From Longimicrobiales bacterium (lineage in GTDB: Bacteria; Gemmatimonadota; Gemmatimonadetes; Longimicrobiales; Gaopeijiaceae): a stretch of DNA of 64,000 bases. The notes under the pieces are model-generated. The model had not been told where the DNA came from. It did not search any database and saw nothing but the letters and a program-made list of their open reading frames with translations. Numbering within the stretch: position 1 is the stretch's first letter; every line of letters starts with the position of its first letter. The DNA lies in contig CBDDCX010000006.1 of NCBI GenBank assembly GCA_965226375.1, positions 416,001 through 480,000 on the forward strand, given 5' to 3'. A program made the position numbers and the translations under genes. Below are positions 1 through 12,425 of the stretch, piece after piece.

Positions 1-1665
1 ACGAGCGGCACGACCCATACGTTCCAGGTTCGTGCGGAAAACGCTCAAGGCGGAAGCGCGCCGGTGACCGTGACCGCGACACCACTATCACAGCCGTCCT
101 GCACCATCGACGAGTTAGGCGACCGGCGCCTGCTCTGGCAGGGCCAACTGACAGCAGGGGTACGCGCCATTTCTACCGATGGAACTATAGAGACAGGGTA
201 TGGGACTGGAGGGGAAGAGACTGGAACCCTGACACTTGCTGCGTTCACCTTCCGTTCAACCACGTATTCCATCGCCACGTGGACAACCGACGATCTTCTC
301 ACCATTGCCCTACGTCGACCCAGACTTTGATCTCTGGTCCCCACGAGAAGAGGTGGTCGACGCATTGAGGTTGCATGTCTGCAACACGCCCTACGACTTC
401 AGCAGTGCACTAGAGCAAGACGTGTTTTCAGAAGCTAGTGGCTATAAGTGGAACGTTGGCTCCATCTGGCCGCCCGGCATCGAGCGCACGCTGCGGCTGA
501 GCTTGCCGCCGAACCATCCGGCGACGGGTGACCCGGTCATTTCCGGCACGGTCCAGGTGGGTGAAGAGCTGACGGCATTGACGGACGGCATCATGGATGA
601 CGACGTCCTGGACGACGTGTTCACCTACCAGTGGGTGCGGGTGGACGCCGACGGCACGTCGAACGAGGAGGACATCACCGACGCGACCGACGCCACCTAC
701 ACCCTGACCGCCGACGAGCGGGGCAAGAAGGTCAAGGTCGAGGTGCGCTTCACCGACATCCTGGGCGGCGAGGAGACACGCACCAGCGCGCCGACGGCGA
801 CGCTACCGGGAGTGCCGAACACCGCTGCGACGGGCGCGCCGACCATCACGGGCACGGCGCAGGTGGGCCAGACGCTGACGGCGGTCGACCACGGGCATCA
901 TGGATGCCGACGGGCTGACCAGCCCCAATTACACGTACCAGTGGATCCGGGTGGACGGCACGGACGAGGCGGACATTGCGGCCGCGAATTCGAGCACCTA
1001 CATCCTGGTCGACGCCGACCTGGGCACGACCCTCAAGGTGCGGGTGACCTTCGACGACGACCTCGGCCATACCGAGACGCTCACCAGCGCGGCGACGGCG
1101 ACGGTGGGCGCGGTAGCGACCGGCCCCCCGACGGTGAACGATGTGGAGGTCACGTCAACGCCGGCCTCGGGCACCACCTACTACCTCGCGGGCGAGGTCA
1201 TCGAATTCACCGTGACGTTCAGCGCCCCGGTGACGGTGACCGCCACACCGAAGTTCGCGTTCAGGCTGGGCGCGGCGACGCGGCAGGCCGCTTACGCGAG
1301 CGGCTCGGGCGCGGCGTTGGTGTTCGCCCGGACGGTGCAGGCAGGCGAGGTCGATCGCAACGGCATCTCGTGGAATTCGCGCTCGCCCTCGACGGCGGGA
1401 CCATCACGCAGACGGGCGCGACGACGGCCGCGAGCCTGACCCACGCCGAGCAGGCGCCGCTGGAGGGGCACCGGGTGGACGCCGCCCCGCCGATGCAGGT
1501 CTCGGCGTCGGTGCATGGGCTGTCGCTGGTGCTGGTCTACGACGAGCCGCTCGATCCGGCCTCGATGCCGGCGACGGGCGCGTATACGGTGATCGCGACC
1601 CGAACGGCCGACGCGCCGACGACGGCCCGCGCCTCGGCGGAGGTGACGGGGAGGCAGCGAGAGTG

Positions 1666-1710
1666 CCGCCACCGCCGCCGCCGCCGCCGCCACCTCCACC
1701 GCCGCCGCCG
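1666..1710 (+). repeat. (CCN)15 tract encoding 15 prolines
   Basis: Directly visible ccg/cca/cct run in frame with the following FN3 repeat. Confidence 0.95.
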
Positions 1711-3811
1711 GACCTTGAGCAGGTGCTGGGGGTGGGGGTCGTCCCGGGCAGCGCGCAGCTGGTGGTGACCTGGACGGCGGTGGACAACGCCACGGGCTAC
1801 ACGGTGCAGTGGATGTCGGGCGGACAGGGCTACAACACCGGCGACCGGCAGGCCACGGTCACGCCCTCGGGGTCGACCACGCGCTACACGATTCCCAGCC
1901 TCACCAACGGCACGGAATACACGGTGCGGGTGATCGCGACCCGGACGGGCGCCACCGACGGCCCGCCGTCGGCGGAGGTGACGGGGACGCCCTTCACCAC
2001 GCCCGGCGCGCCGCAGCACCTGAGTGGGGTGCCGGGCGACGAGCAGGTGATGCTGACCTGGGATGCCCCGTCGAGCGACGGCGGTTCCGCGATCCTCCGG
2101 TACGAGTATGCGATCGACGACAGCGGGACTTGGATCGACGCGGGCCTCGATCTGGAGGAAACGGTGCCGGGCCTGACGAACGGCCAGCAGTACGCGTTCG
2201 AGGTGCGGGCGGTGAACAGCGCCGGCCCCGGTGCGCCGGCGAGGACGGCGGCCACGCCGCTCGGCATGCCGAGTGTGCCCGAGTCGCTCACGGCCACTGG
2301 GGGCGACGGCGAGGTCGTCCTGGAGTGGACCGAGCCCGCGGACGATGGCGGCGCGCCCGTCACCGGCTACGAGTACCGCTTTGCGGCGGGCACCGCGGTA
2401 CCTGGGGACACGCCGTGGCAATCCGCCGGGCTGGACCTCGAGTGGACGGTCACCGGACTGACCAATGGCCAGCAGTACGCCTTCGAGGTGCGGGCGCGCA
2501 ACCGCGTGGGCGAAGGCGAAGCGCGGGGAGCCCTGGCCACGCCGGTGGCGCGGCCGGGCGCGCTCGCGTCGCTGACGGCGACGGCGGGCGACGAAGAGGT
2601 GGCGCTCGTCTGGAGTGCGCCCGCGGACGATGGCGGCTCGCCTGTGACGGGCTACGGGTACCGCTACGCCGCAGGCCAGGCTGTGCCGGAAGACGTCACA
2701 CTGGCGGGACGCGGGCACCGAGCTCACGGCGACGGTCTCGGGGCTGGAGAACGAGACGCGCTACACGTTCGAGGTGCGGGCGCGGAACCGTGTGGGCCCC
2801 GGGGAGACATCGGGGACGACGGCCCTGCCGCTTCGGTTGCGGGCGGAGCTGTTCAGCACGGCTGTGCTCGCGACGGAAGGCGAGGCGCTCGTGGTTGGGG
2901 TGCGCCGGAGCGGGAGGCTCGCGTTTCCGGCCCACGCCTACATCGGCGTGACGGACAGCGCGTTGCCTGGCGTGACGGCAACGGACGAGGGGCGCGACGA
3001 CGGGCTCGGCCGCCAGCGTCTGGAGTTCGCGGCTGGCGCAGCCGAGGCGACCGTGACGGTCACGGTGGCCTTCGACGGCGAGCGTCGGCAGGACCGGGTG
3101 CTCACGGCGACGCTCGATTCCGCGGAACTGGAGGTCGACGGCGTAAGGCGGCCCTATGAACTCGTCACGCCGACACTGGTTGTTCCGGTGACGGAGGGGG
3201 ACGCCGGGCTGTCGGTGGCCGATGCCCGGGTGCAGGGCAAGAGCTCGGTGCTGGCGTTCACGGTGAGCATGGACCGCACGCGGGACGTTGCGGTGCGGGT
3301 GGACTACGCCACGGAGGACGGCGCGGCGCGGGCGGGAGAGGACTACACACCGGTCTCGGGCACGTTGACGATCGAGGCCGGCGGGCGGGAGCGCACGGTG
3401 GAGGTGCCGGTGCTGCCGGCGCTGCACGTGACGGGCGAACGGACGCTCACCCTGAGGCTGTCGAATGCCGTGAGCGCGGTGATCGACGACGGGGTGGCGA
3501 CGGGCACGATCGTTCGCGAATCGGAGCTGCCCAAGGCGTGGCTGGCGCGGTTCGGGCGGACGGCGTCGGACCACGCGGCGCAGGCGATCGCGAGGCGCCT
3601 CGAGGCCGGGCAGCGGGAGACACAGGTGACGGTGGCGGGCCGGCGTGTGGACGGCCTGTCGGTGGACGGCCTGCTGTCGGGGGTGCTGCCGTCGGGCGGA
3701 TGGAGGCCGGCTTCGGCTGTTGAGGACATGGCGACCAGGCTGGCGGCGCCCGCTCTGGCGGCTTCGCCGCGCGCCGTTCGGCGGCGTGGACGCGGATCCC
3801 GGCACCCCTGG

Positions 3812-4023
3812 CCAGTGGGGCTCGGGGAACGCGTAGAACTGGGTGGCGAGCCGTGAAGCCCCGCTCAAGCACGTGGACTGCCTCGGGGAGCTCCTTGAGC
3901 CCGCGCGACGTGATCTCGGCCAGGCGCTTCTTCGACTCTGTGAGCCCGGGGGCTACGGAAGTACGGCGGCTACCTCGCGCGCCACACGCTTGCGCAGGCG
4001 ATGCGTGACCTTGGCCAGCACGT
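3812..4023 (-). mobile_element. Internal fragment of IS256-family transposase DNA embedded in the adhesin gene
   Basis: Closely matches 15559-15768 by eye; has no terminal repeats or target duplication. Confidence 0.75.
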
Positions 4024-4449
4024 CACCTGGCAGGTGCGTGCCGGCACGTGGGGTGGGGCTCCGGGCGCGTTGGACCGGGAGCCTTTCGCAGATGCCGGGC
4101 AGACGCTGCGCCGTGCCGTTCTACCCGACTTCGGGTTCCGGCTGCCGGGCGCGGAGGAAGCGCTCATGGGCACCTCGTTCTACGTCGAGCGCGGAGCGCA
4201 GCAGGACGTGGGCGGCGGCACGTGGGCGGCGTGGGGCGACGTGGCGGCGACGCGCTTCGAGGGGGACGCGGGAGGACTCGCGCTCAACGGCGACGTGGTG
4301 ACGGGCACGGCGGGGCTGGACCGGAAGTGGAGGGCGTTGCTCGTCGGGCTCGCGCTCTCGAGAAGCAGCGGTGAGGGAGGGTATGGCACGGGCGCGGGGA
4401 CGATCGCGAGCACGCTCACGAGTGTGCATCCGTACATGCAAGTCCGGTT

Positions 4450-4850
4450 CTATGAAAGAGAGTGTCAAGGCCGGGCTCCGCCCCGGCTGTCTGCGAAGCC
4501 GTGTTGGGCTTGGCACTCAGCCTCCGCTTGGCTGGAATGACCGGATCGTCAGGGAGTGGTGTGCTGGATGAGTCAGTCTTCGTGTCGGCCACGATGATCC
4601 TCACTTGGATGGTCGATCCGTCTGGACTTGATTGAGTGGACCTAGGTCGTACGACGCGAACCATGGTTCTATCTGAGACTCAGCCTCGGGGCCGGCCTGA
4701 CACTTCTTCGGGTTCTGCGGAAGGGCCTGGAGTTAGGATCGTGCCTCGGCATGACTGCGAGCCGGGCGTACGGATTTGCTTGAGACTGCCTCCCGCACCG
4801 TCGTCCAGGGATTCGACGTTCCAAGGGATCGAAGGTCATGCGCTGCACCC
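4450..4850 (-). ncRNA. Candidate bridge RNA/seekRNA in the 3' non-coding end of the IS1111-type element
   Basis: ~400-nt stretch downstream of the transposase with no convincing gene, where IS1111-type elements carry their guide RNA. Contains short matches to the element's own junctions. Boundaries unknown. Confidence 0.65.
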
Positions 4851-5942
4851 CTACACCCTAGGACGATGAACCCCCCTCAATGTTTGGGGTCGACTCAGCT
4901 GCGTCGGATCAAAGACTTCTCCGGTTTTGAGTAGACGAAGGGTGAGCGCTGCGAGCTTGCGAGCCAGCGTCACACGGGCGAGCTCCTCGCGCATCCCGCG
5001 CTCGAGCATTCGGTTATAGAAGTCCAGGAATGGGCCCGGACGTCCAATGGCTACGTTGGCGGCGCCCTTGAAGACATTCTTGAGGACTCGATTGTGGTTG
5101 CGGTTCAACCCTCGAGTGAGCGGAGGGCGCCGCCGCCGGCGAGGACGCCCATCGAACAACTCGTAGTCGGAGCTCGAGCGCGTGACCACGGCGAGTCCGG
5201 CATAGGCCCACAGGTTGCGCTTCGTGCGGAAGCGCCACGGCGTACCCATGGTTGCTAGCAACAGTGCGATACGCACGGGCCCAAAGTAGGGGATCGTCTC
5301 GAGCACCCCGAAGGCCGGATCACGCTTCGCCTCGGCGACCATGGCCGCCTTGGTCTTCTTGCGCTGAGCCCGAAGCACATCGAGCTGAGCGTACAGGGTC
5401 TCGGCTCGTAGACGAGCTCCTCCCTCCGGTAGCTGCGCGAGCCAGGCGCCGCGCTGCTTCGGCTGGTAGACTCCGCCGCCCGTGGTTCGGATCGCCCGCG
5501 CACGGAAGAGTGCCTTGAGCCGCAGCATCACGCGCGTGCCGTCTTCGACGAGGTTGCGATAGGCTCGAGTCAGCTCCTTGAGATCAGATCGGCCGTGTGC
5601 GCCGTGGTATACCGCGCGCAGCCCGCCACACCGCAACCGCTCCGACAGCTCGTCGGCATCGACCTGGTCCCCCTTGTTGCCCGAACGCTTTTCGCCTCTG
5701 CGATCGCATACGATCACCCGATCCACACGAGGACTCAGTAGGTCGTAGAGCCACTGCGCCTGGGTTCCCTCTTCGAACACTACGTGCACCGACCCGCGCA
5801 TCGCGCTGAAGAACTCCGTGATCGATGCGTCCCCCGTCTCGATCACGCTGCGCGCGATCACTCGTCCCCCTTGGCCCCGAACCGTCGCCACCGTCATTGC
5901 CTGGTGCACGTCGAGTCCCACATACTTGGTGTTCCGCTTCAT
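4851..5942 (-). CDS. IS110-family DEDD transposase/recombinase
   Basis: YVGLDVH, FEEG and KGDQVDA give the DEDD tetrad; C-terminal AYAGLAVVTRSSS serine motif; uninterrupted ORF. Confidence 0.95.
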   Translation of the reverse strand: MKRNTKYVGLDVHQAMTVATVRGQGGRVIARSVIETGDASITEFFSAMRGSVHVVFEEGTQAQWLYDLLSPRVDRVIVCDRRGEKRSGNKGDQVDADELSERLRCGGLRAVYHGAHGRSDLKELTRAYRNLVEDGTRVMLRLKALFRARAIRTTGGGVYQPKQRGAWLAQLPEGGARLRAETLYAQLDVLRAQRKKTKAAMVAEAKRDPAFGVLETIPYFGPVRIALLLATMGTPWRFRTKRNLWAYAGLAVVTRSSSDYELFDGRPRRRRRPPLTRGLNRNHNRVLKNVFKGAANVAIGRPGPFLDFYNRMLERGMREELARVTLARKLAALTLRLLKTGEVFDPTQLSRPQTLRGVHRPRV

Positions 5943-6018
5943 GAGAGCCGCCCTCTGCTGTGGTCCATGGTCGTTTCGCAACTCCACGGTACCCACAGGG
6001 GGCGTGCTTTCAAGTTGT

Positions 6019-6847
6019 GTTTGGGGAGCGCGCGCAGGTGTGGGGCGCGGCGGGCTGGGGCCGTGGCGGACTCGAGATCACGCCGCAGAGCGGGGCCGCG
6101 CTCGAGGCGGACCTGAGGAACTCGATGGCGGCGGCGGGTGCCCGGGCGGTGCTCATGGGTGCCGGTGGGCTCGAGATCGCGCTGCGTTCCGACTTCCTAT
6201 GGACGGAGACGTCCTCGGACGGGACCGCCGCGCTGGCGGAGGCGGTGGGCACGGCGAGCCGCGGGCGGCTGATGCTCGAGGGCGCGGGCCAGATCCAAGG
6301 GCTCGGAGGCGTCGTGCGTCCCAAGGTCGAGGGCGGCGTGCGCTACGACCGGGGGGACGCGGAGACCGGACGGGGATTCGAGGTGGGCGGCGGACTCGAC
6401 TGGGCTCGGGGATCGCTGACGCTCCAAGTCAACGGGCGGATGCTCGTCGCCCACGCTGACGAGTCCTACGAGGAGTGGGGCTACAGCGGCTCGCTCGTCT
6501 ACGAGCCGGGCGCCGATGGCCTGGGTCTCCAGATGCGGGTCGGATCGAGCGCCGGGGCGGCGGCGAGCGGCATCCGGAACCTGTGGGCGCTGGAGAACGC
6601 GAGCGGCCTCGTGCGCGGGGGCGCCGTGCCCTTCGCGCAACGCTTCGACGCAGAGGTCGGCTACGGGCTCGGGAGCGGAACGCTCTGGTATCCCTACTTC
6701 GTCGCCGACGATTCCGGCCAAACGAGGCTCGGCCTGAAGCTCAACTCGGGCCGGACGATCGGCGTCGGCCTCGAGTTCGGGCGAAGGGAGAGTGTGGACC
6801 TTGGGCCGGAGGACGCGATGCTCCTCCGGGGGGAGCTCAGGTTCTAG
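6019..6847 (+). pseudogene. C-terminal beta-barrel part of the autotransporter-like adhesin
   Basis: VRYDRGDAETGRGFEVGGG motif, amphipathic strands, terminal LRGELRF; in frame with the 5' part once the IS is removed. Confidence 0.85.
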
Positions 6848-7471
6848 CGGCCGGCGCTCTCCGAAGTGAACGCGCTCGAGACCCGGGCGGCCGCGCTCGC
6901 AGCCTTCCGGGACGGCGACTCCGGGAACACCGCTCTCGAGGGATGCGTCCGTGCCAGCGTCTGCCGCATGGCGGGGTTCGTGCGCGTGGCCCGCGCCCCG
7001 GCGCTCGTGGCCGGCGGCGGGCTCGCCTTCGCCGAGTCGGCCCTCGACCACGCCGAGCTCAAGATCCCGAATGTCACACTGATGCCCGGGAGAATCCCTA
7101 GACAGCGACATCATCCCGGGCTGCAGTCGCAGCATTCGGTAACCACCGGCGCAACACCGCCATCAGCTTCGCGGACGACGACGTCACCTAGGGCCACCGA
7201 GGTGACGCTCGCGGTCGCGTCCGGAACAGAATCCCGCATCGGTTCGCCTGCTGCCGCGATGGCCGTCCGGCATCTGGAAGGTGGCATCCTCCACTCGCGC
7301 GGTCCGACACTCTCGGTGCGTCAGCTCTGTCCTGGCCGCTCCCCGAGGCTGGCGGTGGCCTACCAGGTCGCGGTGTTCATCGAGGCCTGCAGCCGGGCCA
7401 TGTGGCCCCTGTTCCCTCCCCCGGGGCAACGCGCCCCGGAATTCTTCACCGAACAGAACGGAGGCAGACCG

Positions 7472-7699
7472 ATGACGAGAGCAATGGAACAGGGCATGGA
7501 CGCGCCCGCGCGCGTCCTGCGGTTACCTCGAGTGCAGGCCCGCACGGGGCTTGCGCGGAGCACGATCTATGTGCGGGTGGCCGACGGGAGCTTTCCCCAA
7601 CCGATCCGGCTAGGCGCCCGCGCCGTCGGCTGGATCGAGTCCGAAGTGGATGCGTGGATCCGAGAACAGATCGCCGCGAGCCGCGGCAACGCGAAGTGA
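7472..7699 (+). CDS. AlpA-family transcriptional regulator/excisionase-like protein
   Basis: LRLPRVQARTGLARSTIY...GSFPQPIRLGARAVGWIESEVDAWI; RBS GGAGG at 7460-7464. Confidence 0.92.
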   Translation: MTRAMEQGMDAPARVLRLPRVQARTGLARSTIYVRVADGSFPQPIRLGARAVGWIESEVDAWIREQIAASRGNAK

Positions 7700-7809
7700 T
7701 CTGAAACACTAACCATCTATAATAGTCCGCAATGAGAGAGAACAGGGGCCATCGACAAACTGCCCTCCCGCAAGGTTCGCTCCTTCGCCTCCTCCGGGAA
7801 CCTCCGCTA

Positions 7810-7925: not shown

Positions 7926-8740
7926 GCGCCGGGCGAGGAAAGTGGCGAGTGACGAGGGGGCGCTCCGAGGTGATATCGTGCGACTCGCGAGTCGATTCGG
8001 CCGCTACGGCTACCGACGCGTCACGGACATGCTCCGCATCGAGGGCTGGGGGGTGAAGCACAAGCGGGTGGAGCGGATCTGGAGGCAGGAGGGGCTGAAG
8101 GTGCCGCAGCGGCAGCCGAAGCGAGGTCGGCTGTGGCTCAACGACGGATCGTGCATCCGGCTGAGGCCGCTGTATCGGGGCCACGTCTGGTCGTACGACT
8201 TCGTGGCCTCGAGGACGCACGACGGGCGTGCGCTGAAGCTGCTGACAGTGCTGGACGAGCACACGAGGGAGTGCCTGGCGATCGTGGTGGCTCGCAAGAT
8301 CCGCTCGCACGACGTGCTCGAGGTGCTGGCCGATCTGTTCGTCCGACACGGGCCTCCCGAGTATCTGAGGTCGGACAACGGACCGCGGAGTTCACCGCGA
8401 AGCTCGTGCGGCGATGGTTGGGGCGCGTGGGCGTCGAGATGCTCTTTATCGAGCCGGGCAGCCCGTGGGAGAACGGCTACAACGAGAGCTTCAACGGCAA
8501 GCTCAGGGACGAGCTGTTGAACGGGGAGATCTTCTGCTCGTTGGCGCAGGCGGCCGTGCTGGACGAGCAATGGAGGCGCGAGTACAATACCGTCCGACCC
8601 CACAGCGCCTGCGGCGGCTTTCCCCCGGCCCCTGAGGCGATTAAGCCGTCGCCCTGGTTCCTGAGGATGCCCGTCCTTCACGGCTCTCCACAGGTGCTGG
8701 AACTAACATAGGATGTGGTACCGCTCTTGGGGGCAGGTCA
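7919..8740 (+). mobile_element. 3' half of an IS3-family element (OrfB integrase core, frameshifted) with right inverted repeat
   Basis: RYGYRR, VWSYDF, LRSDNG and PGSPWENGYNESFNGKLRDE motifs; ends ...GGGGGCAGGTCA at 8740. Confidence 0.9.
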
Positions 8741-8861: not shown

Positions 8862-9168
8862 TTGACAGGGGGGAGTTCCATCGCCAGGTGCTCAATCGCC
8901 TGCCGGTTAGGCGAGAGGTGTGGAGCTACTGACGTTGTGTGATCTTTGGTGAGCTCCTCGAAGATGCTCTCCGGAAAACACCATGCCGTCGGTAGATGTC
9001 GGTAACGTTCCCTCTGGCTGAGGGTGGTGCCGCCCGGTGGGGGTACTCCTTTATTGCAGGCTCCTGCGGCTGCTCGAGCTTGCTGCGCGACTCGGTCTCT
9101 TGAGGCGGAAGAAGCAACCACTACACGATACGGTCCCTTCGGACGCCAGGGCCGATAAGGAGGTACAC

Positions 9169-9585
9169 ATGCCCATCTTGAAATCCAGAAGCCTCTTCAT
9201 CAGCCATTCCTGGACCTATGGCGACGCCTACAAAAGGCTCGTGGCCTTGCTCGATGCGGCGCCTAGTTTCCTCTACAAGAACTACTCCGTCCCAAAGGAC
9301 GATCCGGTCCACAACGCGCCGAACGCCGACGCCCTGTACAAAGCCATCAAGCAGAAGATGGTCTTCTGCGACGTGGTGCTAATAATGGCCGGGAAGTATG
9401 CAACCTACAGCAAGTGGATTCAGAGGGAGATTCAGATCGCCAATCAGGATTACAGCAAACCGATAGTCGGTATCCGTCCTTGGGCGAATGAGCAGGTATC
9501 ATCGGTCGTCTCAAATGCGGCTGACAAACTTGTCGCCTGGAACACCAGTTCGATCGTTTCAGCAATCCGGGAGTTGGATCCGTGA
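9169..9585 (+). CDS. TIR-domain protein, Thoeris ThsB/MTH538 (DUF1863)-like, copy 1
   Basis: LFISHSW, NYSVP, CDVVLIMAG, SKWIQREI (catalytic Glu) and KPIVGIRPW; strong RBS AAGGAGG at 9157-9163. Confidence 0.9.
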   Translation: MPILKSRSLFISHSWTYGDAYKRLVALLDAAPSFLYKNYSVPKDDPVHNAPNADALYKAIKQKMVFCDVVLIMAGKYATYSKWIQREIQIANQDYSKPIVGIRPWANEQVSSVVSNAADKLVAWNTSSIVSAIRELDP

Positions 9586-10133
9586 CGGAGGCGCTGCATT
9601 CGCCCGAGCAGAAGCTCTCCGGAGCACTCAAGGGCATACCCCCGGACCAATACGGGCCTGCCTATGCGGATCATGTTCTCGAAATCTATAAAAGCTATCT
9701 CGAGATGGCAGACCGCATTAGCAGCCGTCGGGAGAAAGCGAACTCATTCTTCCTCGCCGTAAACGCTGCGTTGATCGCGCTTCTAGCCAATGGCCGGCTC
9801 GTGGGGAGCGACGTCACGCCTCGCACCCTTGAGCTGCTTGTCCCAATATCCGCCGGCATCCTCTGCTATCTCTGGTATCGCATCATCCGGTCGTACCGAG
9901 ATCTCAATTCGGCAAAGTTCAAGGTGATTCACGCAATCGAACTCGAACTGCCGTTACGTCCGTACGATGCGGAATGGGAAAGCGTCGGGCGCGGCAAGAA
10001 CTCGAAGCTGTACCTGCCCTTCACCCATGTCGAAGCTGTCGTGCCATGGTTGTTCATGTCCCTCTACGCAATCCTGGTCGCGTCTCGTATTCCTTGGGCA
10101 GCTATTTGGACAGCCGTACGAGGCATTGGCTAG
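9582..10133 (+). CDS. Three-TM membrane protein, candidate pore-forming effector (resembles proteins annotated 'RipA family octameric membrane protein')
   Basis: Three hydrophobic segments plus MADRISSRREKANSFF and LNSAKFKVIHAIExxLPxxPYxxEW motifs; GTGA overlap with the TIR1 stop. Family name is from recall. Confidence 0.75.
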   Translation: MTEALHSPEQKLSGALKGIPPDQYGPAYADHVLEIYKSYLEMADRISSRREKANSFFLAVNAALIALLANGRLVGSDVTPRTLELLVPISAGILCYLWYRIIRSYRDLNSAKFKVIHAIELELPLRPYDAEWESVGRGKNSKLYLPFTHVEAVVPWLFMSLYAILVASRIPWAAIWTAVRGIG

Positions 10134-10264
10134 CAACTGCACAAGTTCATTGGGCCCATGGATTGCTGTCAGTTGAGAGAGGTGGAGGAAATACACCTGG
10201 CCAGATGCAGTCGAAATAGCTTTGGCCAACCACACCAGTGTTAGGGGGGGGTGACCACGTGGCG

Positions 10265-10645
10265 ATGAAAGCCTTTATCAGTTTCGACTACGATCATGAC
10301 ATGGACCTGAAGACGTTGTTGGTGGGGCAGGCGAAGAACTCGGATACCCCATTCGAAATCGCCGATTACTCGGTCAAGGAGACATTAACGGGCGACTGGA
10401 GGAAGAAGGTCAAAGAGAAGCTCAAGCTCGTTGGTGTCGTCATCGTCATTTGCGGCGAACATACGGACTCAGCCAGCGGCGTCAGCGCAGAACTCGAAAT
10501 TACGCAGGAGCTGGGGAAGGCCTATTTTCTTCTCTCTGGCCGCAGTGGGAAGACCTGCGTCAAACCCAAAGCTGCGAAGACATCTGACAAGATCTACAAA
10601 TGGACGTGGGACAACCTAAAGGCGCTCATCGGCGGCAGCCGGTGA
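10265..10645 (+). CDS. TIR-domain protein, Thoeris ThsB/DUF1863-like, copy 2
   Basis: AFISFDYDHD, DYSVKE, VVIVICGEHT, GVSAEL (catalytic Glu) and YKWTWDNLK. Alternative GTG start at 10259. Confidence 0.9.
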   Translation: MKAFISFDYDHDMDLKTLLVGQAKNSDTPFEIADYSVKETLTGDWRKKVKEKLKLVGVVIVICGEHTDSASGVSAELEITQELGKAYFLLSGRSGKTCVKPKAAKTSDKIYKWTWDNLKALIGGSR

Positions 10646-10663
10646 CGCGCTGCGGGTAGGTCT

Positions 10664-11506
10664 ATGAGACGTGCTCTTTGCGTCGGCATCGACAACTATA
10701 CGGCTGGCCCCCTTCGCGGCTGCGTCAGCGACGCCGAACGATTGTGCTCTGCTCTAAGGTGTAACCAGGATGGCTCGCCAAACTTCGAGCCACGATTGCT
10801 AGTCGCTCCTGACCCAGGACCAGATGACGTCGTTACTCGCCGCGTTCTCCGCAAGCAGCTAGGACGGCTGTTCAAAGATCCGGCAGAGCTAGCGCTCCTT
10901 CACTATTCTGGCCACGGCACGGTCAACAATCTGGACGGGTACCTGGTCACGCAGGATGCTGCTAAGTTCGACGAAGGTATCGCGATGGGGGAAGTGCTCA
11001 CGCTCGCCAATGATTCGCCGGCGGATGAAGTGGTCGTCTTCGTCGATTGCTGCTACTCGGGGAGGTTCGGCAATCCGCCTGCAATCGGCAATGCAAGAGT
11101 CTTGCTGCGAGAAGGCGTCTCGATCCTGACTGCGAGCAGGGGTGATCAGCCCTCGGTCGAGACTGGGGGAGGAGGTGTGTTTACGTCGCTTGTGCTAGAT
11201 GCCCTTGAAGGAGGAGCGGCGGATATTATTGGCTCGGTGACGCTCCCAGCCATTTACGCCTACGTGGCTGCCGCCTTAGGAGCATGGGATCAACGTCCCC
11301 TATTCAAATCCCACACGTCTCGGCTACTACCGCTCAGGCGATGCACGCCGCCGATAGAGCAGAGTCTCCTGAGAGACTTGCCTCTGCTTTTTCCGCTACC
11401 TGCAGAGGATCTTCCTCTTGATCCTTCATTTGAGCCGCAATCCGCGAGACCTGATGAAGGGAATGTGGCCACCTTCGGAAAATTGCAGGCCTTGAGTAGA
11501 GGGTGA
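10664..11506 (+). CDS. Caspase-like protease (peptidase C14), type IV Thoeris-like effector; C-terminus probably truncated by IS30
   Basis: RALCVGID, LRGCVSDA, HYSGHG (catalytic His), FVDCCYSG (catalytic Cys), ILTAS and GGVFT. The stop codon lies inside the IS30-like end. Confidence 0.9.
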   Translation: MRRALCVGIDNYTAGPLRGCVSDAERLCSALRCNQDGSPNFEPRLLVAPDPGPDDVVTRRVLRKQLGRLFKDPAELALLHYSGHGTVNNLDGYLVTQDAAKFDEGIAMGEVLTLANDSPADEVVVFVDCCYSGRFGNPPAIGNARVLLREGVSILTASRGDQPSVETGGGGVFTSLVLDALEGGAADIIGSVTLPAIYAYVAAALGAWDQRPLFKSHTSRLLPLRRCTPPIEQSLLRDLPLLFPLPAEDLPLDPSFEPQSARPDEGNVATFGKLQALSRG

Positions 11507-11960
11507 ATTCAAGAGGTCGTCGCAACACCTCAGGAAAGAGGAGGAGTTGCGATGGCGGCAAGCAAGCGCCGACGGTCGGATCGAGCTTTGCGTCCGCCGA
11601 TGGGTTCACCCGGTCGTCCCCCGTTGGGGCGCCGGGAGCATCGGCAGAGGTTTTGGGAAGAAGTTGCTCGAGGGCTGTCGAGCGAGGAGTCGGCGGTGGC
11701 AGCCGGCGTGTCTCCCGCTGTTGGAGCGCGCTGGTTTCGCCAATGTGGTGGCATGCCACCTTTCAGTCTTCGTCCTCTGTCGGGGCGCTACCTATCGTTC
11801 GTCGAGCGAGAAGAGATTGCGGTTCTTCAAGCCCGCGGTTGTGGCGTACGTGAGATCGCCCGGCAGTTGCGCCGCTCATCGTCGACGATCTCGCGAGAAC
11901 TGCGGCGGAACGCAGCAACGCGAAGTGGAAACCTCGAGTATCGAGCCACGACCGCCCACT
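11502..11960 (+). mobile_element. 5' fragment of an IS30-family element
   Basis: End motif GGTGAATTCAAGAGGTCGTCGCAACAC. ORF 11552-11965 has SGRYLSFVEREEIA...REIARQLRRSSSTISRELRRN (HTH) but no DDE domain. Confidence 0.85.
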
Positions 11961-12425
11961 GTTGACCTTCTCGGAGACGCCAACTGGGAGTTGGCAGACG
12001 GTGCCGTTTCAGCAAATGAGGGCAGCGGGTTCCTCGTCTCGGAGGAGTCCTACGGTGATTTCGAACTGACGCTGGAATTCTGGGTCGATGAGCCCGCCAA
12101 CAGCGGAGTGTTCATTCGCTGTTCGGATCCCGAAAACGTTGGAGCTGCCAACTCCTATGAAATCAATATCTTCGATACGCGGGCCGACCAGACATACAGA
12201 ACCGGAGGAATCGTGAACGTGGCAGCGCCGGCTAGCGTCATCAATACCGGGGGCCAATGGAACAGTTACGAAATCACGGCCCAGGGCTCACGGCTGGTCG
12301 TCATCCTGAACGGCACCCAGACCGTCGACACGACCGACGATCAGTTTGTCAGCGGCCCGTTCGCGCTCCAATACGGGGCAGGCACGGTCCGATTCCGCAA
12401 CGTCCAGATTCGGTCGCTCGACTAA
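11961..12425 (+). pseudogene. DUF1080 (3-keto-disaccharide hydrolase-like) gene lacking its 5' end
   Basis: YGDFELTLEFWV, ANSGVFIR, GQWNSYEI and FALQYGAGTVRFRNVQIR; fused directly to the IS30 fragment. Confidence 0.85.

Follow-up and report, generated by a model that had tools for sequence, protein, structure and literature searches.

The 64,000-nucleotide stretch of Longimicrobiales DNA analyzed here (the window) contains, at positions 9169..10133, a TIR gene (TIR1) that is translationally coupled to a gene encoding a 183-aa membrane protein. This arrangement raises the question whether the two proteins form a Thoeris-type defense system and, if so, which nucleotide signal would pass from the TIR to its partner. 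As judged from sequence comparisons, TIR1 and the partner, a member of the Pfam family 8xMP, very likely constitute a real and conserved two-gene Thoeris module; the identity of the signal is assigned with much less confidence.

The coupled TIR and 8xMP genes

TIR1 (9169..9585, + strand) encodes a 138-aa ThsB-type TIR protein that matches both Pfam ThsB_TIR (PF08937; E 6e-15) and PADLOC ThsB (E 4e-12). The gene is preceded by a strong ribosome-binding site, a Shine-Dalgarno sequence (9157..9164, + strand; AAGGAGGT) located four bases 5' of the ATG at 9169. The WxxxE motif is intact (W83/E87), both residues are invariant in 16 homologs, and TIR1 is predicted to be the phage sensor as well as the synthase of a cyclic ADP-ribose (ADPR) isomer. 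The overlap of the TIR1 stop codon with the GTG start codon of the partner gene (GTGA, 9582-9585), noticed in the original prediction, was confirmed on the sequence; a GGAG at 9570-9573 lies ahead of the partner start at 9582, and an RTGA overlap between the TIR and 8xMP genes is retained in all six close homologs that were checked. MTH538 was the only relative of TIR1 with a solved structure, and the same kind of search found none for TIR2, the second TIR of the locus. A search for promoters and terminators at the locus yielded nothing exceeding chance.

The partner gene (9582..10133, + strand) encodes a three-TM protein, a predicted oligomeric membrane effector. This protein belongs to a named family, 8xMP (PF24838; E 9e-38; 129.6 bits compared to a gathering cut-off of 30), which is its only Pfam match; NCBI names the proteins of this family 'RipA family octameric membrane protein'. 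All 78 aligned homologs of the partner match 8xMP as well, and none of the NCBIfam and PADLOC models matches the 183-aa protein. The proposed lack of Macro, SLOG/STALD, SIR2 and SAVED domains holds against Pfam and, for SIR2-SLOG and Macro, also against NCBIfam and PADLOC. In the suggested comparison with RipA- and SLATT-like models of Pfam and NCBIfam, 8xMP ('RipA family') was matched in Pfam, and SLATT/DUF4231 was not. The family, which we take to be newer than Pfam v32, has 3,764 clusters when its members with E up to 0.001 are grouped at 50% identity, and it was detected above the Pfam cut-off in 5 of the 201 genomes of the window's phylum and in 16 of the 401 genomes of a second phylum. 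Literature searches on 8xMP, PF24838 and the RipA family, covering few subscription papers, returned no paper with the family name or accession.

The three TM helices of the original prediction were recovered in alignment-averaged hydropathy profiles (segments ~55-73, 78-103 and 149-179; 78- and 60-row alignments), with only two segments exceeding 1.6 in the single-sequence profile of the window protein. The AlphaFold2 model of this protein is all-helical, with a mean pLDDT of 84, and predicts two long helices, each with a soluble half that continues into the membrane; a short helix lies within the LP..PY..EW loop, and there is a third TM helix. The near-invariant residues are Y36, R49, R50, N54, W98, Y105, K112, F113, E120, L123, E131, W132, E151 and P155. 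The loop that had been described as conserved-looking is indeed conserved, with K112, F113, E120, L123, E131 and W132 each at least 90% conserved among the 78 diverse homologs.

When modeled in four copies, the 8xMP protein forms a head-to-tail homo-oligomer with a score of 0.74, against 0.10 for the best control, a contact agreement between runs of at least 90% and a pLDDT of at least 77; the score mark, which 20 of 30 solved homodimers and 1 of 23 single chains attained, is only roughly calibrated for four copies. Residues R45, R49, R100, R103 and K112 lie on one face of the modeled subunit, and D44, S47 and E151 lie on the other. The tightest contacts between neighboring subunits are made by the loop 123-131, so that the LP..PYDAEW loop, for which the originally suggested role as the ligand site is not supported, looks in the model to be at least partly an assembly latch. 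No relative of the 8xMP protein was detected in a PDB search by sequence profile, or by Foldseek against PDB and viral models at E 0.001 or better, and VIA-align returned only generic helical bundles (best Z 9.7). This absence of structural relatives neither shows nor excludes a new fold.

Genomic linkage, TIR kinship and the candidate signals

Among the 18 genome loci of the 8xMP protein, 14 have a co-oriented TIR gene directly upstream; the others include one with a divergent TIR, two that start at a contig end, and one without a TIR. On plasmids, 6 of 34 loci were examined, and all 6 adjoin a TIR-type gene, in one case a weak TIR_2 match. Thus, 8xMP homologs adjoin TIR genes, and the original prediction withstands the possibility that they would mostly lie away from them. 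A TIR-8xMP fusion exists as well (P0182), its TIR resembling TIR2 of the window, and an 8xMP protein encoded behind a separate TIR has a TIR-like N-terminus, detected by a local profile only (L041:1483-2313, - strand).

Metagenome loci of the TIR1 clade show two prevalent partners: 69 of the best 80 loci (of 544) encode 8xMP or a caspase, namely 47 with 8xMP (in one case encoded on the opposite strand), 20 with a caspase, and 2 with both. The 11 loci with neither include three with SLATT, one with a SIR2-like gene, one TIR fusion, and six that are unresolved or at a contig end. The 29 viral loci of this clade, many of them near-duplicates, divide into 7 with 8xMP, 15 with a caspase, none with both, and 7 with neither. 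Because 8xMP-linked TIRs made up most of the query for the TIR1 clade (14 of 16), the share of 8xMP is inflated. The viral contigs yielded matches in alignment scans, and single-protein scans with TIR1 and 8xMP were empty.

Across the family as a whole, the link between 8xMP and TIR is looser than in the set of genome loci. No TIR was detected within ~1.5 kb of the close 8xMP homologs at L016 and L053-L055. A second PF24838 subfamily, characterized by a FEIxLYWxR-type first helix (L051, L052, L056-L058, L209-L211), is common on Pantoea plasmids, and one of its copies lies within a type I R-M operon. As a TIR partner, this subfamily was mostly rejected, with TIR_2 upstream in one of five genome loci (neighbors partly scanned) and an annotated TIR in none of three plasmid loci.

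Diverse domain combinations were observed in the family. One 8xMP domain encoded downstream of a TIR is fused behind DUF7701, a possible extra nucleotide sensor (L020:1468-2283, - strand); DUF7701 presumably resembles the RyR-type repeat. Another is fused to an NMT1/THI5-like binding domain (P0192), and two are located behind several additional hydrophobic segments (P0141, P0156). At L061:409-1467 (- strand), an 8xMP homolog is followed by a gene with matches to prokaryotic STING and nucleoside deoxyribosyltransferase, and no TIR was seen.

The likely product of TIR1 can be approached through its kinship. Type IV Thoeris consists of a TIR and the caspase ThsE, with N7-cADPR as the signal, as described by Rousset et al. 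(10.1101/2024.10.24.620036) and Chen et al. (PMC13243611). TIR1 shares 56% identity with the TIR of the TIR-caspase (type IV) operon of E. coli ET210, the layout of which is shared with the Pycsar-type IV operon presented in PMC13069673. Supplementary Data 1 of PMC13243611 lists EcTIR, with which N7-cADPR was produced in that study; EcTIR is ~77% identical to the ET210 TIR and ~56% identical to TIR1 (counted by eye).

By kinship, TIR1 appears to belong with the type IV TIR lineage in a tree of 139 de-duplicated rows (partial TIRs and 10 duplicate loci excluded), where the nearest neighbors of the E. coli type IV TIR include 8xMP-linked TIRs. In both the TIR1 and the TIR2 clades, 8xMP-linked and caspase-linked TIRs interleave, and the starred branches force 9 partner switches in the quick IQ-TREE tree and 7 in the FastTree tree; nonetheless, the effector labels are clustered on the tree, with none of 500 shuffles giving a value as low. 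TIRs linked to different effectors reach 85% identity (the natural pair L138/L163), and no alignment column separates 60 8xMP-linked from 17 caspase-linked TIRs, the catalytic core being common to both. Four operons, in the window, L026, L108 and L129, encode both effectors. In L026 (2504-4817; Clostridium perfringens plasmids), the four gene types of the window are found in another order, caspase-TIR-8xMP-TIR, and in L108 and L129 the order is TIR-caspase-TIR-8xMP. Given that these dual-effector operons also carry two TIRs, they are compatible with two separate systems.

The kinship of TIR1 to type IV TIRs, together with the repeated swaps between caspase and 8xMP, suggests that 8xMP may be gated by N7-cADPR and not by 3'cADPR. 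Sequence relationships point to N7-cADPR as the single most likely TIR1 signal, an assignment that we consider tentative. With the same reservation, we propose that TIR-linked 8xMP could be a membrane-ring receptor of N7-cADPR, that is, a second effector of the type IV signal that has repeatedly been swapped with the caspase in two separate TIR lineages and sometimes stands beside it. The possibility that a membrane ring reads the type IV signal does not appear in the literature searched; the searches, on type V/ThsF, on RipA and phage defense, and on N7-cADPR and membrane effectors, covered few subscription papers and found nothing beyond the papers cited here.

Under the proposed mechanism, TIR1 would detect a phage protein, as suggested by its type IV relatives, and would convert NAD+ to a cyclic ADPR isomer, as expected from its family and its intact catalytic motif. 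The signal would then bind in pockets between subunits, on the cytoplasmic side of the 8xMP ring, with R49, R50, N54, Y105, K112 and E151 as candidate pocket residues (the conservation and the oligomer model are computed, and the pocket itself is inferred). By analogy with ThsF, the ring would breach the inner membrane, and the infection would be aborted.

The pair has to be weighed against type V Thoeris, which was verified among the 29 putative Thoeris types listed in the bioRxiv preprint of Yirmiya et al. (10.64898/2025.12.03.692087). Type V, as described there, consists of a ThsB TIR and ThsF, a protein with three TM helices that is annotated as DUF2270 and modeled as a heptameric ring with charged pockets between protomers; the TIR cluster from which ThsF came also contains cases of type I (302) and type IV (160). 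The architecture of the TIR1-8xMP pair has probably already been described as type V. The original prediction of a Thoeris-type TIR with an oligomeric membrane effector stands, in that homologs adjoin TIRs and the four-copy model is oligomeric, but its novelty of kind is not supported, an effector of three TM helices that lacks a separate sensor domain and is predicted to form a ring with inter-protomer pockets having been described and tested in the preprint as type V. The accompanying statement that characterized effectors generally read the signal through a dedicated nucleotide-binding site is at odds with types V-VII, which, as presented in the same source, lack a separate sensing domain.

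The 8xMP protein probably belongs to the same effector family as ThsF, and the pair would, by analogy, work like type V Thoeris. PF10028 (DUF2270) did not match the window protein and was not among the families listed (25 of 30) for the 78 homologs. In hhalign comparisons, 8xMP and DUF2270 aligned collinearly over ~106 columns with E 0.03-0.09; this similarity did not rise above the block-shuffled controls, 3 of 40 of which gave a higher score (11-row DUF2270 alignment). The Pfam 8xMP model weakly matches a true DUF2270 gene (E 1.2e-4), and in the structural models of both families two long helices are followed by a short helix and then a TM helix. Canonical DUF2270 proteins contain four hydrophobic segments versus three in 8xMP and were rejected as TIR partners, with a TIR nearby in 0 of 13 loci (~11 distinct genes, local TIR profile), whereas 8xMP is TIR-linked. 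Plasmid, homolog and cluster-name searches found no protein from the strains of the type V preprint. The type V assignment may be decided or reversed by Tables S1-S3 and Fig. S5 of 10.64898/2025.12.03.692087, in which the TIR-8xMP pairing may already be included.

These resemblances also fit the best-surviving alternative, in which TIR1 makes 3'cADPR, 8xMP is an ordinary ThsF that opens on 3'cADPR, and the caspase pair is a type IV system of its own, stacked beside the first within one island. The three TM helices, predicted heptameric ring and inter-protomer pockets of ThsF, its origin in a TIR cluster shared with type IV, the differences between canonical DUF2270 and 8xMP, and the weak similarity and common helix order of the two models all favor this reading, as does our assumption on the age of PF24838, v32 being the only Pfam release named in the methods of 10.64898/2025.12.03.692087. 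We nevertheless regard it as unlikely, and 3'cADPR ranks below N7-cADPR as the TIR1 signal. TIR1 groups with type IV TIRs and not with the two type I (3'cADPR) ThsB that were recovered, which are separated from the TIR1 clade by a tree path of 3.7 or more; with type I systems found in only 2 of 401 genomes, this control is thin. Furthermore, no SIR2-STALD ThsA was found among the scanned neighbors of TIR1-clade loci without 8xMP or caspase, and, according to the preprint (10.64898/2025.12.03.692087), 3'cADPR activates one of the two tested type V systems, the other effector being unresponsive. Two observations count against N7-cADPR: a second TIR of a type I operon is ~41% identical to TIRs of 8xMP and caspase operons, and the type V TIRs tested in the preprint made 3'cADPR, none of them activating the type IV caspase.

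Less likely still is the same architecture with another signal, either the canonical cADPR of type VII or an ADPR product not described so far; this option, too, ranks below N7-cADPR. SLATT effectors beside TIR1-clade TIRs were confirmed at 6 loci, TIRs 58-61% identical to TIR1 precede SLATT/DUF4231 genes, and at L007 a SLATT gene follows 8xMP. The tested SLATT effectors (type VII, ThsH) use canonical cADPR, as reported in 10.64898/2025.12.03.692087. Due to these SLATT partners, membership in the TIR1 clade does not fix the product, which weakens the N7-cADPR reading, and the product specificity of a TIR may shift with few residues. However, SLATT is present in 3 of the best 80 metagenome loci, compared to 22 with a caspase.

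The island and its damaged caspase

TIR1, 8xMP, TIR2 and a caspase form an island located between two transposase remnants, with a GC content of 0.56 at 9001-11000 compared to 0.60-0.73 in the surroundings. TIR2 (10265..10645, + strand; Pfam ThsB_TIR, E 3e-7) is a 126-aa ThsB-type TIR of a second clade, and its closest relatives stand ahead of caspases or 8xMP. The next gene (10664..11506, + strand; Pfam Peptidase_C14, E 3e-13) encodes a truncated type IV Thoeris caspase-like effector that is 38-49% identical to seven full-length homologs and 39% identical to the one from E. coli. By sequence, TIR2 and this protein are a type IV Thoeris pair. The damage to the caspase that had been suspected is evident from its length, 280 aa versus about 316-330 aa in the seven homologs, with ~39 C-terminal residues gone, and the missing tail was not found elsewhere in the genome. 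The truncation of the caspase leaves the 8xMP protein as the sole intact effector of the island, for which TIR2 would act as a second sensor in the case of a shared signal.

The stop codon of the caspase is provided by the left edge of an IS remnant (11504..11965, + strand), in which the ORF at 11552-11965 matches HTH_38 (E 6e-18). This remnant is present in a single copy in the genome and is presumably IS30-like. Upstream of the island, a frameshifted transposase remnant of two overlapping ORFs (7942..8711, + strand; rve, E 5e-11; HTH_21, E 6e-12), which we take to be IS3-like, closely follows a DNA-binding ORF (7402-7704) that hints at an integrated element and is presumably AlpA-like. A large frameshifted protein at 236-6847, as read from the ORFs, is broken by a transposase at 4851-5996; we assume that it is located on the surface, contains fibronectin-like repeats and probably has an autotransporter end.

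The truncated caspase and the flanking IS remnants could mean that the whole island is decaying and non-functional, with the pair intact only by chance between the remnants. That 8xMP copies do get broken is indicated by P0082, which shares 98% identity with the window 8xMP across 117 residues but no similarity beyond them and thus points to a disrupted copy in a very closely related genome. We consider such decay highly improbable for the TIR1-8xMP pair, which is intact as originally stated: both frames are full length, the ribosome-binding site and the coupling are retained, and the invariant residues of the relatives are present.

The least probable reading is the inverted logic offered originally as an alternative, in which phage or membrane stress would be sensed by the membrane protein, and TIR1, activated by it, would be an NAD+-depleting effector. 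In favor of this reading, some 8xMP proteins are fused to other domains or lie where no TIR was detected, and the preprint (10.64898/2025.12.03.692087) cautions that in some of the unverified TIR pairs NADase effectors may be at work. Against it, close TIRs of the same clade operate with caspases and no membrane protein, the partner slot holds interchangeable killing modules (caspase, SLATT, 8xMP), and in type IV, as described in the cited work, the TIR is the demonstrated sensor and signal maker, with mild NAD+ loss only and phage escape mapping to the capsid vertex protein.

Comparison with known Thoeris types

In the cited type IV work, the caspase is the sole N7-cADPR-activated effector, and its C-terminal domain, the one truncated in the window, is proposed as the N7-cADPR binder, a site presented there as a hypothesis. 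If 8xMP is gated by N7-cADPR, it would be a second, unrelated receptor of this molecule, and one signal would drive both proteolysis and membrane breach where both effectors are kept. A function would thereby be assigned to a large family (the 3,764 clusters given above), and a simple growth-based N7-cADPR reporter would become available; if, in addition, 8xMP is the ThsF family, one fold would have been retuned for different cADPR isomers. The TIR pairs with up to 85% identity and different partners would allow direct tests of what sets isomer specificity and of which of the two, signal or effector, defines a Thoeris type. Should the signal be 3'cADPR, the pair is simply another type V system.

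The pair differs from Thoeris of types I and II in that the partner has no match to SIR2-SLOG or Macro in Pfam, NCBIfam or PADLOC. With type VII (ThsB and the SLATT protein ThsH), it shares the combination of a TIR and a small membrane effector, for which the preprint predicts signal binding between protomers, and SLATT genes occur with TIR1-clade TIRs; however, the partner has no SLATT/DUF4231 match and contains three TM helices instead of two. The hhalign comparison of 8xMP with a small SLATT set remained at noise level. The likeness to type IV consists in the 56% identity of TIR1 to the E. coli type IV TIR and in the type IV pair that the operon also contains, made up of TIR2 and the truncated caspase, whereas the gene coupled to TIR1 encodes a membrane protein, not a protease, and the caspase follows TIR2.

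Type V, as described in 10.64898/2025.12.03.692087, likewise combines a small TIR with an adjoining three-TM effector that has no separate sensor domain, and its TIR cluster is common to type IV. Cap9-11-like genes are present in some loci, according to the legend of Fig. 6G, which refers to Thoeris generally, and here in L031, a Halorubrum plasmid locus (3516-7636) with genes for a TIR, 8xMP, an unknown protein, a PfkB kinase and QueC that resembles the Cap9-11-type Thoeris operons of the preprint. ThsF is predicted to form a ring with inter-subunit pockets, and for 8xMP we obtained a four-copy head-to-tail model, with the pocket inferred. Two differences set the window pair apart: the effector matches PF24838 and not PF10028 in hmmscan, with ThsF compared by description only, and TIR1 groups with the N7-cADPR-making type IV TIRs, whereas the type V TIRs tested in the preprint made 3'cADPR.
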